Assembly (NCBI GenBank): GCA_963815195.1
Contig: CAWFGE010000013.1
Location: 160,001 to 224,000, forward strand
Length of the DNA: 64,000 nucleotides
Direction: 5' to 3'
DNA from: an uncultured Planctomycetaceae bacterium
Lineage (GTDB): Bacteria; Planctomycetota; Planctomycetia; Planctomycetales; Planctomycetaceae
Part shown: piece after piece, positions 6,603 through 44,295 of the stretch
How the letters are laid out: the number at the start of each line of letters is the position of its first letter
How positions within the stretch are numbered: the first letter of the stretch is position 1
Translations under genes and position numbers: made by a program
The notes under the pieces: model-generated
Told to the model about the DNA's origin: nothing
Seen by the model: the letters and a program-made list of their open reading frames with translations, nothing else
Databases searched by the model: none

Positions 6603-8261
6603 ATGAAGGCATCTGATTTGTTCGTGAAGTGTTTGGAGAACGAAGGGATCGAGTTTATCTTCGGCGTGCCGGGCGAAGAAAACGCCGACTTTATGATCTC
6701 GCTTGAGGATTCGAAAAAGATCCGGTTCATCCTCACCCGCCACGAGCAGGGGGCCGCATTCATGGCGGAAGTTTACGGCCGACTGACCGGGAACCCCGCC
6801 GGCTGTTTGGGCACGCTCGGGCCGGGGGCGACGAACCTGATCACCGGCGTCGCCGACGCGAACATGGACAGGGCCCCGATGATCGTGCTCACCGGGCAAG
6901 GCGACTCGGAACGGCTGCACAAGGAATCGCACCAGGTGATGGACGTGGTCGCGATGTTCCGCCCCGTCACCAAATGGGCCCAGACGGTTTATCATCCCGA
7001 TAACATCCCCGAAATCGTCCGCAAAGCCGTTCGCCTCGCGCGGACCGAAAAACCCGGCGCCTGCCACATCGAACTTCCGGAAGACATCGCGGAAAGGGAT
7101 GCAACGACCCAGCCCATCGAAGTCCGCAAATTTCGCCGGCCCGTGCCGGATGACAAAATCGTGGACCGGGCCTGGGAGATGATCCGCACCGCCAAGCGGC
7201 CGATCATTCTTGCGGGCAACGGCACGATCCGCCGACGGGCCAGCAAGCAGCTTCGCGAGTTCGTGAAACAGACGGGCATCGGCGTGGTCAGCACGTTCAT
7301 GGCCAAGGGCTGCGTGGATATGGACTCCGAGGAATGCGTTTACACCGTCGGCCTCCAGGCTCGCGATCATGCCATCTGCGCGATCGACGCCGCGGATGTG
7401 GTCATCTCGCTGGGCTACGACATGGTCGAATATCATCCAAGGCTTTGGAACCACGGCAACAAGCACAAGCTGGTGCACATCGATTTCATTCCCTCCGAAA
7501 TCGATGAGGATTACCGCATCGATGTGGAAGTCGTCGGCGATCTCGCGCATACGCTGTGGATGCTCAACGAGCGCGTGAAGGCCTACGGAACCGGTAAGCT
7601 CGACTTCGACCACACCCACGCCCGCAAAGCCCGCCAGGCGATGAAAGCCGACCTCGAAGAGTACAAAGACGACAACACGCAGGGAAAAATCAAGCCGCAA
7701 AAAGCCCTCTGGGACGCCCGGCAGGCGATGGGCCCGGAGGATATTCTGCTCTCGGACGTCGGGGCCCATAAAATGTGGATCGCCCGGCATTACCAATGCC
7801 ACGAACCCAATACCTGCCTGATCCCCAACGGTTTCTGCTCGATGGGCTTCGCCCTGCCGGGGGCGATCGCCGCGAGCCTGGTGCACCCGGACCGCAACAT
7901 CCTCGCGGTTTGCGGCGACGCCGGGTTTATGATGAACGTCCAGGAAATGGAAACCGCCAAGCGGATCAACTCCAAGATCACCGTGATGATCTGGGAAGAC
8001 CACGCCTACGGCCTGATCGCCTGGAAGCAGCAAAACCACTTCGGCAAGCACACCGATTTGTCTTTCGGCAACCCCGACTTCGTCGAACTGGCCAAAGCCT
8101 TCGGCTGGAACGGCCACCGCTGCGAAGACAGCACCAAACTCCAATCCGTCTTGAAAGAAGCCCTCGCCGAAGATGGCCCCAGCTTGGTCGTCATTCCCAT
8201 CGATTATGACGAAAACCCCAAATTGACCAAACGCCTCGGCGACATCAGTTGCCCGATTTAA
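6603..8261 (+). CDS. ThDP-dependent enzyme of the acetolactate synthase-like family, resembling cyanobacterial 2-oxoglutarate decarboxylase
   Basis: FGVPGEEN, RHEQGAAFMA, GPGATNL, SDVGAHKMW.ARHY.C..PNTCLI.NG, GDAGFMMN ThDP motif; no ilvH/ilvC nearby. Confidence 0.85.
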   Translation: MKASDLFVKCLENEGIEFIFGVPGEENADFMISLEDSKKIRFILTRHEQGAAFMAEVYGRLTGNPAGCLGTLGPGATNLITGVADANMDRAPMIVLTGQGDSERLHKESHQVMDVVAMFRPVTKWAQTVYHPDNIPEIVRKAVRLARTEKPGACHIELPEDIAERDATTQPIEVRKFRRPVPDDKIVDRAWEMIRTAKRPIILAGNGTIRRRASKQLREFVKQTGIGVVSTFMAKGCVDMDSEECVYTVGLQARDHAICAIDAADVVISLGYDMVEYHPRLWNHGNKHKLVHIDFIPSEIDEDYRIDVEVVGDLAHTLWMLNERVKAYGTGKLDFDHTHARKARQAMKADLEEYKDDNTQGKIKPQKALWDARQAMGPEDILLSDVGAHKMWIARHYQCHEPNTCLIPNGFCSMGFALPGAIAASLVHPDRNILAVCGDAGFMMNVQEMETAKRINSKITVMIWEDHAYGLIAWKQQNHFGKHTDLSFGNPDFVELAKAFGWNGHRCEDSTKLQSVLKEALAEDGPSLVVIPIDYDENPKLTKRLGDISCPI

Positions 8262-12240: not shown

Positions 12241-12544
12241 CGCTCAACTTTTGAATGCGAATTGCAACGCCGCTGTCGACGGCGGATGAAAAGGAAACAA
12301 CGAAATCATGGGGCACGAAATCATGTTTTGCAATCGTCCGGCGGACCGGCGAGATCTTTCCCTTTCCGGACTTCCAATTCCGCGCGGCCGGCTCTATTAT
12401 CATGTATCGGCTCCTCCGATGGGGCCGGTGAATTGGTGCGATGAACGCCCGGCCCGCTTTCAATGGCGGTTGTCGGGCGATTTTTGTTTCTGGCGAATGG
12501 TTTCCAAAGATTCGACTCCCGCTGTCCCACTCAAGATGCGCCCG

Positions 12545-13735
12545 ATGATTCCCAACGATCTCTATGAACGCTACTGCGAATTGCAGCGCTACGTCGGCTG
12601 GACCGATGAGTGTGCCCGCCGCGTCCAATCTCTGGCGGCGATGATGGAGCCGCATTTCGCGGACCTGGTGGATGATTTCTACGCGGAGATCCAGAAGCAT
12701 CCGCGCGCGCTCCAGGTGATTACCGGCGGAGACGCCCAGATCGAACGCCTGAAAGGAACGCTGGTGAAATGGCTCCGGGAACTCTTCACCGGACCTTATG
12801 ACGCCAACTATATCGCCCGGCGGTGGCGGGTCGGCTATCGGCACGTGGAGATCGGCCTCGACCAGGTGTTTACGAACGTTGCCCTGTCGCGATTGCGGCA
12901 GGGAATTCATCGCGTCCTCGAGCAAAACTGGACCGGCGAGCCGGCGGAGCTGCTTAAAGTTCGCGACGCCGTCAACATGTTGATCGATCTCGACCTGGCC
13001 AAAATCGAGGATGCTTATCAGGCCGAGTATTTGAACCGCCAGCAGCAGGCGGAACGGCTGGCGACGATCGGCCAGGTGGCCGGGGGCATTGCTCACGAGC
13101 TTCGCAATCCGCTCAACGTCATCAAGACGTCGGTGTATTACCTGCTCAACGCCCGCAGCCCCTCGCCGGAGAAACAGGCCGAGCATCTGGGCCGGATTGA
13201 AAAACAGGTCGGGATTGCGGACGGGGTGATCACGGCCCTGTCGAGTTTTGCCAAACTGCCGATCCCGAACCTGCAGACGTTTTCGGTGCCGGCCCTGCTG
13301 CGGGACATGGTTCAGGAGGCTTTGCTTCCGCCGGAGATCGAGGCCGAGATCGACTGCCCGTCTTCCATCGCCAACGCGGTCGGCGACGTGACCCAGTTGC
13401 ACATCGTGCTGCGGAACCTGATCCGCAACGCCCGCGATGCGATGCCCGACGGCGGCTTGTTGACCATCCGCGCCGAAGGAGGCGACGATCATGTATTGAT
13501 TTCGGTCGAGGACACCGGGCACGGGATCGCGCCGGAAGATTTGCACCGCGTCATGCAGCCCTTGTATTCCACGAAGGCGCGGGGCATTGGCTTGGGTTTG
13601 GCGATGGCCCGGGCGATCGTGGAGAAAAACGACGGCTCGCTCACGGTCGCGAGCGTTCCCGGCGACGGGGCGACATTCACCGTTCGCTTGCGTGCGGAAC
13701 CTCCATCCGCCAAAATGGAATTGGAAAAACCCTGA
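12545..13735 (+). CDS. Globin-coupled (protoglobin) sensor histidine kinase
   Basis: Protoglobin domain (DDFYAEI with B10 Tyr, VGYRHVEIGL with F8 His) followed by HELRNPL, NLIRNA, DTGHG and GIGLGL boxes. Confidence 0.9.
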   Translation: MIPNDLYERYCELQRYVGWTDECARRVQSLAAMMEPHFADLVDDFYAEIQKHPRALQVITGGDAQIERLKGTLVKWLRELFTGPYDANYIARRWRVGYRHVEIGLDQVFTNVALSRLRQGIHRVLEQNWTGEPAELLKVRDAVNMLIDLDLAKIEDAYQAEYLNRQQQAERLATIGQVAGGIAHELRNPLNVIKTSVYYLLNARSPSPEKQAEHLGRIEKQVGIADGVITALSSFAKLPIPNLQTFSVPALLRDMVQEALLPPEIEAEIDCPSSIANAVGDVTQLHIVLRNLIRNARDAMPDGGLLTIRAEGGDDHVLISVEDTGHGIAPEDLHRVMQPLYSTKARGIGLGLAMARAIVEKNDGSLTVASVPGDGATFTVRLRAEPPSAKMELEKP

Positions 13736-13838
13736 CATCCAAAAGTTTATGAGTCGCGCGGAAACTGGATCTCATCGAGCTTTTCGCCCGCGGGACAATC
13801 TTCGTCTGCATTTATTGCTGGGATGCGCCCGATCGCTC

Positions 13839-14579
13839 ATGAATGAATCTCCAAAAGTCCTCGTTGTCGACGACGACGCGGACACTTGCCAAAACCTGCA
13901 AGATATTCTCTCCGACATGGGCTATGCCGTGGACACTGCGCAGGATGGGCCGACTGCGTTGAAGATGGTGCAGCAGACGCCTTACGACGTGGCCCTGTTG
14001 GATCTCAAGATGCCGGGCATGGACGGCTTGATGCTATACCGCGAAATCCGCAAGCTCCGCGCGGGGACCGTGGCGATGATTGTCACGGCCTATTCCACGC
14101 CGGAGACGACCAGCGAAGCTCTGAGCGCCGGGGCTTGGAAGGTCATGTCCAAGCCGGTGGACTTTTCGCAGCTTCTGCCGTTGCTCGACCAGGCGACGCA
14201 CCAACCGCTGGTGATGGTGGTGGACGACGATCACGACCTGTGCGAAAACCTCTGGGACCTGCTCCGCGACCAGGGCTACCGCGTCTGCCTCGCCGCGAAC
14301 GAACGCGAGGCCGCGGCCCGCCTCGAAGGGCGAAACGTGCAAGTCGTGCTGATCGACATGAAACTCCCCACCGGCGACGGCCGCGATGTCTTGAAGCGAG
14401 TGCAGGAACTGTCGCCCGCGGCCCGCACGCTGCTCATCACGGGACACCGCGACGAGACGTCTCAAATGGTTGAGGACGCCGTGCGGGACGGGGCGGACGG
14501 CGTGTGCTACAAACCGTTCGACATGCCCCAGCTTCTGGAATTGCTCCAGCGTCTGTCTCAAGCCGATGGCGATGAATAA
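13839..14579 (+). CDS. Response regulator with two tandem receiver domains and no output domain
   Basis: VLVVDDD...LLDLKMP...SKP and VMVVDDD...LIDMKLP...YKP. Confidence 0.9.
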   Translation: MNESPKVLVVDDDADTCQNLQDILSDMGYAVDTAQDGPTALKMVQQTPYDVALLDLKMPGMDGLMLYREIRKLRAGTVAMIVTAYSTPETTSEALSAGAWKVMSKPVDFSQLLPLLDQATHQPLVMVVDDDHDLCENLWDLLRDQGYRVCLAANEREAAARLEGRNVQVVLIDMKLPTGDGRDVLKRVQELSPAARTLLITGHRDETSQMVEDAVRDGADGVCYKPFDMPQLLELLQRLSQADGDE

Positions 14580-15645
14580 TTCCGCGCTCCGAATTTTGGT
14601 AATCGAAGATGACGAGGATACCTGCCTCAACCTGTGCGACATCCTCGAACTCGACGACCACACCGTCGAGACGGTTTCCACCGCGGCCGAGGCTCTCGTC
14701 CCCGGCCGGCTGTCCGTGGCGGAGGTCGTGCTCTTGGACCGCCGGCTGCCCGACGGCACCGCCGAACAGTTGCTTCCGAAATTCAAGACGCTCTCTGCGG
14801 ATGTGGACGTGATCATCATCACCGGCCACGCCGACGTGGACAGCGCGATCGCCGCTTTGCGGCAGGGCGCGACCGATTATCTTTTGAAGCCGATCAATCC
14901 CGAGGTGTTAAGGGCCTGTCTCCGCCGGCTGGCCGAGCGCCGCCGGCTGGCCGAGCGGCTCGTGCAGGCCGAGCGGCTCGCCGCCATCGGCGAAGCGATG
15001 GCGGGCCTCACCCACGAAGCCCGCAACGCGCTCGCCCGCAGCCAGGCCAATTTGCGCCGGCTGTCCCGGCGGCTCAAAGACCAGCCCGAGATGCTCGAGT
15101 TGATCGGCGGCGCGCTCGCCGCCCAGGAGGATGTGCAGCACCTGTTTGAGGATGTCCGCCAATACGCGGCCCCGCTCCGCCTCCGCCGGGAACCGACCGA
15201 CGTCGGGCGACTGGTGGACGAAGCCTGGGAGAAGCTCGCCCTCGAACGCAAAACGCGGGACGCGGAACTCCATCAAAACCGCGCCGGCAAAGACCTCGTC
15301 TGCGAGATCGATCCGTTTGCCATGCGGAACGCGTTTCGAAACCTTTTTGAAAATTCGCTCGCGGCGTGCGCCGATCCGGTGCGGATCGAGACCGCGTTTC
15401 GAGACACCCGGTTCGCCGGGAAACCGGCGATCGAAATTTCCATTCGCGACAACGGCCCCGGATTTCCACCCGAAACGGCGCAAAGCGTCTTTGAAGCCTT
15501 TCATACCACCAAAACGCACGGCACCGGTTTGGGATTGGCGATTGTGAAGCGGACCGTCGAAGAGCACGGCGGCCGCGCCCTCCTCGGTTCCGCCGCCGGC
15601 CCGGGGGCCGAAATCCTTCTCACATTGCCCAGGGGAACCTCATGA
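14572..15645 (+). CDS. Hybrid receiver-histidine kinase
   Basis: N-terminal REC (IEDD, LLDRRLP, LKP), then THEARNAL, NLFENS, DNGPG, GTGLGL; overlaps both neighbours. Confidence 0.9.
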   Translation: MNNSALRILVIEDDEDTCLNLCDILELDDHTVETVSTAAEALVPGRLSVAEVVLLDRRLPDGTAEQLLPKFKTLSADVDVIIITGHADVDSAIAALRQGATDYLLKPINPEVLRACLRRLAERRRLAERLVQAERLAAIGEAMAGLTHEARNALARSQANLRRLSRRLKDQPEMLELIGGALAAQEDVQHLFEDVRQYAAPLRLRREPTDVGRLVDEAWEKLALERKTRDAELHQNRAGKDLVCEIDPFAMRNAFRNLFENSLAACADPVRIETAFRDTRFAGKPAIEISIRDNGPGFPPETAQSVFEAFHTTKTHGTGLGLAIVKRTVEEHGGRALLGSAAGPGAEILLTLPRGTS

Positions 15646-16229
15646 CGGAACCATTGCGTATCGCTATCGCCGACGACGAGCCGGAATTGCTCGCCGACCT
15701 GGAAGAGACGCTGTTGGAGTTCGGGCACGAAGTCGTTGCCAAGGCCCGAACCGGGGCCGATCTCGTGGAGCGCTGCCGGGACTTGGCTCCGGACCTCATC
15801 ATCAGCGACATCAAGATGCCCGACATGGACGGCCTGGATGCCGCGAAGCAGATCCGCGAGAACCGCCCCACGCCGATTGTCATCGTCTCCGCGTATCACG
15901 ATCAGGAATACGTCGATCGGGCCCTCAAAGAACACGTGCTCGCCTATCTGGTCAAACCGATCAACGACCAGAGCTTAAAGACGTCCATTTCCCTGGCCAG
16001 GCAGCGGTTCAAGGAATTTCAGGCCCTTCAAAATCAGGCGGCGGATCTGCATCAGGCGCTCGAAGACCGCAAACTCGTCGAGCGGGCGAAAGGCATCCTC
16101 ATGCAGCGGGCGGGACTCAGCGAACCCGACGCCTTCCGCCGATTGCAACTGCTCTCCAGCCAGAAGAACAAAAAGATGGTCGAAATCGCCCGCACCATCG
16201 TCGAAGCAGACCAGGCGTTTGGTTCGTGA
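15642..16229 (+). CDS. REC-ANTAR response regulator (RNA-binding antiterminator)
   Basis: IADDE, ISDIKMP, YLVKP, then LEDRKLVERAKGILM....LSEPDAFRRLQ..S.....KMVEIA (ANTAR). Confidence 0.95.
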   Translation: MTEPLRIAIADDEPELLADLEETLLEFGHEVVAKARTGADLVERCRDLAPDLIISDIKMPDMDGLDAAKQIRENRPTPIVIVSAYHDQEYVDRALKEHVLAYLVKPINDQSLKTSISLARQRFKEFQALQNQAADLHQALEDRKLVERAKGILMQRAGLSEPDAFRRLQLLSSQKNKKMVEIARTIVEADQAFGS

Positions 16230-16246
16230 TCCGAATGCAAAAAGAA

Positions 16247-16307
16247 AGAGCCGCGCACGAAGTCAGCGGACGTGTGTCTCGCTTCCGCTGACTTCGTGCG
16301 CGGCTCT
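16247..16307. repeat. Perfect 24-bp-stem palindrome (GAGCCGCGCACGAAG family) between convergent genes
   Basis: AGAGCCGCGCACGAAGTCAGCGGA ... TCCGCTGACTTCGTGCGCGGCTCT; second copy at 54656-54725. Confidence 0.85.
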
Positions 16308-16320
16308 CTTTGTGCCTTAG

Positions 16321-42716: not shown

Positions 42717-43628
42717 CTATTCATTAACGGTTTTCGTCCACTCGTGGTGCATAATGGAGGCAATCGCCACCGAGGCCAGGCGGGCCGCAGGTGGGTCCGA
42801 ACGCGACGGCAGGATGATGGGCACTTTCGCCCCGATCACAATCCCCGCCATCACGCCGCCGGCCAGGTACTCCAAATCTTTTGCGAGGATGTTTCCGGAG
42901 TTCAGCTCCGGTGCGAGCAGAATGTCGGCATCGCCCGCGACATCGCTGACGATTTCCTTGGTCTTTGCGGCTTCAAGCGAGATCGCGTTGTCGAACGCCA
43001 AGGGGCCATCGACCAGGGCGTGGCGAATCTGCCGCCGCTGCGCCATTTTGCTCAGACAGGCCGCATCGACCGTCGAGCCGATTTCCGGCTTGACCACTTC
43101 CACCGCCGAAAGGGCTGCGACTTTGGGCGTTTCCACGCCCAGCACGCGGGCCAGATCGACGGCATTCTGCACAATCGCCGCCTTTTGCATTAGATCGGGG
43201 GCGATATTGATGGCCGCATCCGTGATGAACAGCAGTTTGTGATACGACGCCAGATCAACCACGAAAACATGGCTCAGCCGCCGCGCCGTCCGCAGTCGGC
43301 TCAGCACCGGGTGCATCAACACGTCGGTGTGCAGCCAACCCTTCATCAGCCCAGTGACTTCGCCCGCGGACGCCAATTCCGTTCCTTGCCGCGCGGCGTC
43401 CTCTTCACTCATCGCATCGACGATGCGGCGCCCGTCCAGCGACACACCAACGGTTGCCGCCGTCGCTTCAATCCGCTGGCGGAGTCCGACAAACACCGGC
43501 GTCATCAGTCCCCGCTCCAGCGCCTGGGCGACCCCCTCCATCACATGTCGTTCGCCCGCATCCACCACTGCAATCGTCAACGGCGGAAGCTGCATGGCTC
43601 GTTCAATGAGTTTTTGAAGCCGCTGCAT
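42717..43628 (-). CDS. Phosphate acetyl/butyryl-transferase
   Basis: LMKG.LHT, ITDAAINIAP, VDGPLAFDNA, GNILAK, SRSD. Confidence 0.9.
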   Translation of the reverse strand: MQRLQKLIERAMQLPPLTIAVVDAGERHVMEGVAQALERGLMTPVFVGLRQRIEATAATVGVSLDGRRIVDAMSEEDAARQGTELASAGEVTGLMKGWLHTDVLMHPVLSRLRTARRLSHVFVVDLASYHKLLFITDAAINIAPDLMQKAAIVQNAVDLARVLGVETPKVAALSAVEVVKPEIGSTVDAACLSKMAQRRQIRHALVDGPLAFDNAISLEAAKTKEIVSDVAGDADILLAPELNSGNILAKDLEYLAGGVMAGIVIGAKVPIILPSRSDPPAARLASVAIASIMHHEWTKTVNE

Positions 43629-44117: not shown

Positions 44118-44177
44118 TCCTTGCCTCTGCCATCCCGCCAGGAATGTCGTCCCGCGTGTTGGAACCGCCCGCATGAC

Positions 44178-44295
44178 AAAAAAACCCGGCATCCACCAAA
44201 TGTGGAAACCGGGCGATCATCGCGATGAATTTATTGCCTATCGTCGGCAGTTGACTTACCTTCATTATCATATCGCACATTTTGTTAGCAGGCAA
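44178..44295 (-). promoter_or_regulatory. Sigma-70-like promoter and leader with two small hairpins and an intrinsic terminator (candidate attenuator)
   Basis: TTGCCT-N17-TATGAT (44295-44267); TGCC-GACGATA-GGCA; GC-GATGATC-GC; CCCGGTTTCCAC-ATTTG-GTGGATGCCGGG-T7. Confidence 0.6.

Follow-up and report, generated by a model that had tools for sequence, protein, structure and literature searches.

How does a haem-based sensor kinase come to share an operon with a protein that is predicted to act on RNA? The question is raised by four adjacent genes of an uncultured Planctomycetaceae bacterium (GenBank assembly GCA_963815195.1), which occupy positions 12545 to 16229 of the window, that is, of the whole 64,000-nucleotide stretch that was analysed (contig CAWFGE010000013.1, positions 160,001 to 224,000 of the forward strand). 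The answer that we regard as probable is that a haem relay of the NmpU-NmpT-NmpS type, known from Myxococcus xanthus, and a REC-ANTAR regulator together turn on a low-oxygen gene set, which they would do through a tandem-hairpin leader RNA, by blocking the terminator that overlaps it. In what follows, G000 denotes the genome carrying the window, G001 onward are related genomes, and L numbers are individual loci.

The first gene (12545..13735) encodes P0001, a globin-coupled histidine kinase of the NmpU/AfGcHK type (396 amino acids; Pfam Protoglobin-HisKA-HATPase_c). It is followed by P0002 (13839..14579, 246 amino acids), an NmpT-type double receiver that, by its Pfam domains and helix-1 residues, is likely a phosphate sink, by P0003 (14572..15645, 357 amino acids), an NmpS-type hybrid receiver-HATPase_c kinase identified from Pfam domains and a kinase-core tree, and by P0004 (15642..16229, 195 amino acids), a REC-ANTAR regulator in which Pfam and an alignment with EutV reveal a retained G-binding pocket and a serine (Ser173) at the position of EutV Met172. 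All four genes lie on the plus strand and none has an internal stop. A gap of 103 bases separates the first two, and the last three overlap, by 8 bases (P0002/P0003) and by 4 bases (ATGA, P0003/P0004). The phospho-sites are present throughout (P0001 H184, P0002 D55 and D173, P0003 D56 and H148, P0004 D56); the H-box at H148 is visible by eye and is not called as HisKA by Pfam. An earlier note on this DNA had described such a run of domains, the overlap of the last three genes and the intact phospho-His/Asp motifs, all of which are borne out.

The best PDB match of P0001 is 5ohe (E 5.7e-31), and its globin aligns with that of AfGcHK from Anaeromyxobacter sp. Fw109-5 across residues 10-159. P0001 thus joins a protoglobin-type sensor to a HisKA-HATPase_c kinase, with Y46 and H100 standing for the distal Tyr45 and proximal His99 of AfGcHK; both residues occur without exception in the 79 aligned globins, and the phospho-His is retained as well. 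Haem-based gas sensing by P0001, which had also been proposed before, would fit these residues.

In Myxococcus xanthus, NmpU phosphorylates receiver 1 of NmpT and the receiver of NmpS, NmpS phosphorylates NmpR only, and NmpU does not phosphorylate this output regulator (PMC6211767; here and below, the papers are cited from excerpts of their texts). Furthermore, the NmpS D59A variant is more active, and it is in its unphosphorylated form that NmpS is active (PMC6211767). The planctomycete operon has the same globin kinase, double receiver and hybrid receiver-kinase in the same order, and a run of this type was found in 13 of 13 Myxococcaceae loci examined (of 17 having a globin match), most of which also have an NtrC-type gene close by. 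None of these 13 loci contains an ANTAR match, which sets AfGcHK and its kin apart from P0001. Homologues of nmpSTU in Planctomyces have already been mentioned, in a paper whose main text does not contain the word ANTAR (PMC6211767). The wiring of the first three genes, which the earlier note did not know to be characterised, would be that of a published relay, and the straight kinase cascade it envisaged gives way to one in which, by the Nmp model, the double receiver would serve as a sink off the main path and the phosphorylated hybrid kinase would be off. Its proposal that the operon supplies the module with an output stands as far as the ANTAR protein is concerned, which is backed by a candidate RNA target, but the Myxococcus module already has an output in NmpR.

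Receiver specificity points to the same relay. At eight helix-1 positions picked by the analyst, receiver 1 of P0002 shares 5/8 residues with the P0003 receiver and 0/8 with that of P0004, and over 36 loci the P0002-type receiver 1 and the P0003-type receiver agree at a mean of 4.25/8 positions, against means of 1.7 and 2.1 for either compared with the ANTAR receiver. As in NmpRSTU, the sink and the hybrid kinase thus match and the output receiver is distinct; autoregulation would be another shared trait. The ANTAR receiver in turn co-varies in sequence with the P0003-type H-box of the second kinase, in what amount to few independent events: glycine at H+3 pairs with an arginine ending helix 1 of the ANTAR receiver (11 of 11 loci), and arginine at H+3 with a residue other than arginine there (20 of 21 loci). 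In the genus of the window the charges are swapped between a kinase patch of net +3 and an ANTAR receiver patch of net -5.

In kinase-core trees, P0001 clusters with the myxobacterial NmpU-type cores (SH-aLRT 88-89). The P0003 core falls within a planctomycete subfamily (support 99-100), apart from the NmpS cores; this subfamily has an H-box of its own and, unlike P0003 itself, most members carry an extra PAS domain. Since the tree test does not reject a single clade of P0003 and NmpS cores (p-AU 0.19), a kinase-core swap, in which the two would be unrelated, is not claimed. Three further NmpS-like hybrids are encoded in G000 (C5:40506-41621, C17:198517-199437 and C19:64720-65820), with the same receiver helix 1 and different H-boxes; one lies behind a weak leader match and one is apparently split. 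A single globin kinase may, on these sequences, fan out to several outputs.

From these comparisons we infer the flow of phosphate and its sign. Oxygen-bound P0001 would autophosphorylate at H184, as AfGcHK and NmpU suggest, and would then phosphorylate receiver 1 of P0002 as a sink and the receiver of P0003, keeping P0003 off, in line with the Nmp data and the helix-1 match. When oxygen falls, P0003 would phosphorylate P0004 at D56, a step suggested by gene order and co-variation. Because phosphorylation switches the hybrid kinase off in the Nmp model, the output would be on at low oxygen. The opposite sign, in which the ligand-bound globin kinase activates P0003 or feeds P0004 in a straight cascade that is on with oxygen or that answers nitric oxide, carbon monoxide or haem oxidation, would suit the activity of AfGcHK as Fe(III), Fe(II)-O2 and Fe(II)-CO, and also L064 and L072, where a globin is fused directly to a P0003-type core followed by REC-ANTAR and no inversion is required. 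Pyruvate:ferredoxin oxidoreductase and NiFe hydrogenase, both among the candidate targets described below, are typically oxygen-sensitive. Together with the inability of NmpU to act on the output regulator and the active state of unphosphorylated NmpS (PMC6211767), this makes the opposite sign improbable.

What the relay would act on is indicated by P0004. Like EutV and EutW of Enterococcus faecalis, and also AmiR, NasR and PdtaR/Rv1626, it is built of a receiver, a coiled coil and an ANTAR domain. EutV contacts RNA through R142, K143, E160, an aromatic residue at 164 and Met172 (PMC8934654), and the equivalents of the first four are retained in P0004 and in 120 of 120 close homologues. Met172, which is essential in EutV and has been proposed to exclude smaller loops (PMC8934654), is replaced by serine in 117 of 120 close homologues and in 39 of 42 proteins of the loci. 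No ANTAR protein bearing this methionine was found in 20 planctomycete regions searched, and it is absent from 19 other planctomycete ANTARs. A second planctomycete ANTAR class, with Gln-Ser-Gln in helix 3 and also without the methionine, was observed in L130-L132, L135 and L149. P0004 further differs from EutV in its predicted haem-relay input and in candidate targets that are not nitrogen or ethanolamine genes.

Direct reading of upstream regions revealed a conserved leader 5' of the globin kinase, to which the earlier note does not refer. In it a linker joins hairpin 1 to hairpin 2 and a terminator follows, the 3' arm of hairpin 2 being also the 5' arm of the terminator. Both folds covary: over 26 sequences, the paired cells amount to 94% and 92%; none of 500 shuffles scored as high, and slid controls reached 30-61%. 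Double changes were seen in 14 of 17 leader pairs over 54 sequences, from which the analyst had drawn the structures. The RNA model R1 matches 5' of the kinase in 29 loci, 26 of them used in training and 3 new; 26 of the 29 hold an ANTAR gene, 2 end early, and the remaining one is L054. No match below E 0.4 was obtained in the 13 myxobacterial loci, and neither the leaders of two loci nor that of the window had an Rfam match.

Known ANTAR targets have two loops containing G, with the second hairpin overlapping an intrinsic terminator and canonical hexaloop pairs (PMC3369931). The tandem arrangement, the loop G and the overlap are all found here. In contrast to the A-N-N-G-N-N of the EutV/EutW targets, the planctomycete loops are mostly five bases long (A-Y-G-N-N, with G third), one base below the hexaloop with its A1 and G4, or, should the inner pair be open, seven bases with G in fourth place. 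In 56 of the 60 regions around later matches, hairpin 2 loops are mostly Y-A-U-G-R-N-R, the loop G being fixed by the method in this survey; the outer two loop bases could pair in 37/56 of hairpin 2 and 47/56 of hairpin 1, and the spacing from G to G is 22-26 in 48/56. An RNA-level output, as the earlier note had proposed, is thus supported by a candidate target, in which the canonical hexaloops it was taken to assume are mostly replaced by shorter loops. Canonical hexaloop pairs near the operon were not enriched (440 against 403-470 in shuffles), a scan of the genome for them gave no useful signal, and scans by structure only were too loose (22 real against 14 and 14 control matches at score 11).

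Anatomy, ANTAR biology and co-occurrence together suggest the last step on the RNA, in which dimeric P0004 would bind the two short G-containing loops, so that hairpin 2 replaces the terminator and RNA polymerase reads through. Co-occurrence was assessed in 120 genomes of the class with a further RNA model, R3, at E<=1e-3 (39 candidates scored per genome, E-values rough); the RNA was found in 22 of these genomes, which are kin rather than independent and some of which may have supplied training leaders. Among the 23 genomes that have a close ANTAR it was present in 19, and among the 5 borderline ones in 2 (21 of 28 together); it was further present in 1 of the 15 with a distant ANTAR only, and in none of the 77 without any ANTAR.

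These counts also bear on who reads the leaders, which could be real attenuators recognised by another REC-ANTAR, by a CsrA-like or other RNA-binding protein, or by a small ligand. Such a reader seems unlikely. CsrA-like genes are common beside the operon, and G000 has a second REC-ANTAR (C8:81229-84134; L085 and L089), which follows a 771-amino-acid membrane PAS kinase of the P0003 subfamily, is 63% identical to P0004 in the ANTAR domain and also lacks the methionine. Reading by this paralogue is countered by G078 and G090, where a close ANTAR follows a kinase of the C8 type and no RNA match was found. A reader other than an ANTAR protein is at odds with the 77 RNA-negative genomes and with an anatomy typical of ANTAR targets, namely two G loops about 24 bases apart and a hairpin 2 that overlaps a terminator.

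Reading by P0004 would reach beyond the operon, as leader copies number up to 18 per genome. The early further copies lay 5' of BON, CsrA, USP and Hsp20 genes. In G000, with a profile trained on other genomes only, 6 of 5265 upstream regions exceed the best control score, and these precede a USP-CBS pair, a hemerythrin accompanied by a P-type ATPase, an HPF-cold-shock protein, genes for two small proteins, and a cytochrome c'-like pair that is followed by a dehydrogenase fragment and an ATP synthase operon. After self-training 9 regions pass, both window leaders included, which is circular. G001, outside training, has 17 leader matches at E<=0.008, and 10 of 16 examined leaders precede apparent orthologues, judged by N-terminal sequence, of leader-bearing G000 genes.

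Some leader matches have no gene called nearby; of the 109 proteins called behind 60 matches, 38 chosen by the analyst were scanned. Pyruvate:ferredoxin oxidoreductase is the first gene behind the leader in five genomes and phosphoenolpyruvate synthase-type genes in three, and the others include USP, CBS, Hsp20, BON, CsrA, HPF, the Fe-S subunit of a NiFe hydrogenase, malic enzyme, alcohol dehydrogenase and phosphoribosyl pyrophosphate synthetase. These are genes of stress, dormancy and anaerobic metabolism. DosR-type dormancy regulons likewise combine a haem kinase input with USP, CBS, Hsp20 and ribosome-hibernation genes, under a DNA-binding regulator, whereas planctomycete control would run via antitermination. 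The NmpR regulon holds CBS, USP, a P-type ATPase with cbb3 oxidase, HemN and hemerythrin, and its report also makes the USP link to DosR-type regulons (PMC11841059); CBS, USP, P-type ATPase and hemerythrin are common to both lists, unlike the fermentation enzymes of the planctomycete one. In addition, a leader-led run at C15:783374-786541 of G000 (L125) contains BON, unknown, CsrA, Hsp20, dodecin, pyruvoyl arginine decarboxylase and DksA-type genes, and a CsrA gene among the members of the regulon points to a further layer of control at the RNA level. With a leader 5' of the operon itself and others before about a dozen G000 operons, the relay would include positive feedback.

In the window, leader hairpin 1 (12405..12430, plus strand) is a 10-bp stem with the loop G at 12418 and is the predicted first ANTAR site, at the same position as the covarying leaders of the 29 related loci. 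Hairpin 2 (12438..12448, plus strand) has a 3-bp stem and a five-base loop with G at 12443, giving a G-to-G spacing of 25 that fits most others, and its 3' arm begins the stem of a predicted intrinsic terminator with a U-tract (12446..12489, plus strand; fold z -2.6), 56 bases 5' of the start codon. This terminator is not listed by a simple consensus scan. The terminator fold (-43.3 kcal/mol) and the fold with hairpin 2 enforced (-34.0 kcal/mol) are mutually exclusive. In G001 hairpin 2 is identical, the terminator near-identical and hairpin 1 less conserved. Position, conservation in G001 and this exclusion support the window leader as a candidate site.

A second leader copy, found by profile matches at 44176..44250 on the minus strand, also lies 5' of the orthologous gene in G001. 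Behind it stands a receiver-like paralogue of P0004 (43683..44117, minus strand; 29% identity to the P0004 receiver) without an ANTAR domain or the usual phospho-Asp motif, followed by a phosphate acetyl/butyryltransferase (42717-43628). The paralogue and its leader are conserved together in G001, and by pairing with P0004 the paralogue could weaken the response. G000 also holds a fragment that resembles this gene, at C5:58978-59265.

The synteny search that the earlier note had suggested finds the full four-gene order in 31 of 61 related loci from a genome scan; 9 end before the fourth gene at contig ends, and the rest are variants. A full-length P0001 orthologue is present in 7 of 40 relatives, with the order kept in G001, G002 and G027, the ANTAR gene first in G029 and no REC-ANTAR match in the other three, G004, G010 and G019. 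Among the variants, L052 is without the sink, L047 is without the hybrid kinase, and L064, L068 and L072 have the globin fused to the second kinase type. In six loci, mostly of Gemmataceae, ANTAR is absent and a third kinase type is accompanied by an NtrC-type gene or by the receiver of one, and no REC-ANTAR was found in the 5 genomes of this group that were searched.

Such loci raise the possibility, which we consider very unlikely, that the relay in fact acts, as it does in Myxococcus, through an NtrC-type sigma-54 activator, REC-ANTAR being a sink or minor branch. NtrC-type genes adjoin the relay in several planctomycete loci and are the sole output seen in G004, G010 and G019, and a receiver without ANTAR is present in L023, L039 and L081-L083. 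The window operon, by contrast, has no NtrC-type gene: REC-ANTAR sits in the place of NmpR, G000 is without a clear NmpR orthologue, and its best matches to such neighbours (38-47% identity) are spread over several paralogues. Moreover, the RNA-facing residues are invariant in the ANTAR homologues, and the leader tracks the ANTAR domain. The output of the planctomycete relay is thus predicted to act on RNA, and that of Myxococcus is a sigma-54 activator acting on DNA. Other globin arrangements were also observed. L070:7953-9476 joins a protoglobin to a sigma-54 activator AAA domain, apparently as a one-component haem-sensing activator; L081-L083 hold a globin-GAF-PAS kinase, a single receiver and an NtrC-type gene directly 5' of cbb3 oxidase genes, resembling the Myxococcus NmpR regulon; and L013, L022, L038, L049 and L063, whose records bear the names Alcaligenaceae, Paceibacterota or Myxococcaceae, contain copies of the planctomycete type (56-68% identity to P0001) owing to either mis-binning or transfer.

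Several observations weigh against low-oxygen antitermination by P0004, beside the kinship of the sampled genomes. Direct inhibition of NmpS via receiver phosphorylation was not demonstrated in vitro (PMC6211767). The serine of P0004 could mean weak or no RNA binding, because Met172Ala abolishes it in EutV (PMC8934654). G000 carries five further kinases of the P0003 subfamily besides its second REC-ANTAR, and no REC-ANTAR match was found in G004, G010 and G019, where a P0003-type kinase is present. No leader before the kinase was found in at least ten ANTAR-bearing loci. The window leader itself is divergent, ranking 15 of 5265 upstream regions with the profile trained on other genomes only; its score of 21.2 is below the control maxima of 24.9 and 26.9, and it is missed by R1, R3 having been trained on it. 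Finally, 8 of the 22 RNA-positive genomes have no globin match, and in several of these the ANTAR sits behind other P0003-type kinases. As the RNA was also found in none of 17 genomes with globin and without ANTAR, it would appear to follow the ANTAR protein, with the globin relay as one of its inputs (14 of 22).

The operon is surrounded by housekeeping genes (ROK kinase, aldolase, shikimate and IspD), and a consensus scan found no sigma-70-like promoter. Between it and the convergent aldolase gene lies a long inverted repeat (16238..16312, fold z -10.6), likely a two-way terminator or a repeat like the repetitive extragenic palindromes (REP). A repeat with similar arms lies 5' of the operon in G001 (L074 ~7925-7978), and the two may belong to one REP-like family.

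Both the relay and ANTAR antitermination are known; what appears to be undescribed is their combination, together with the shorter-loop RNA and the regulon. In the openly accessible literature no description was found of an ANTAR protein with a globin-coupled kinase, of a pentaloop or of a planctomycete hypoxia role. None of the planctomycete genera tried is named in 7 supplementary files of PMC3369931, the available text of a 2025 review has no match to 'pentaloop' or 'Planctomyc' (PMC12591593), and bioRxiv 660928, as excerpted, retains the hexaloop consensus.

To conclude, we lean towards the view that Planctomycetes run an anaerobic and dormancy regulon by antitermination, using an oxygen-sensing Nmp relay, an ANTAR subfamily without the methionine plug, a new five-base-loop code, up to about 18 attenuators per genome, positive feedback and, possibly, a brake in the form of a truncated receiver. 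If true, a DosR/FNR-like programme would here be carried by attenuators and would offer a natural experiment on the determinants of ANTAR loop size, and the published proposal that Met172 sizes the accepted loop (PMC8934654) becomes testable. For Planctomycetes, which are abundant in soils, peat and sediments, the low-oxygen response would gain a named regulator, a cis-element and a list of targets. ANTAR biology would widen beyond nitrogen and lipid genes to take in a large regulon linked to oxygen, and an RNA motif without an Rfam match would be added. One sensing relay would thus be plugged into DNA-level or RNA-level outputs across lineages.

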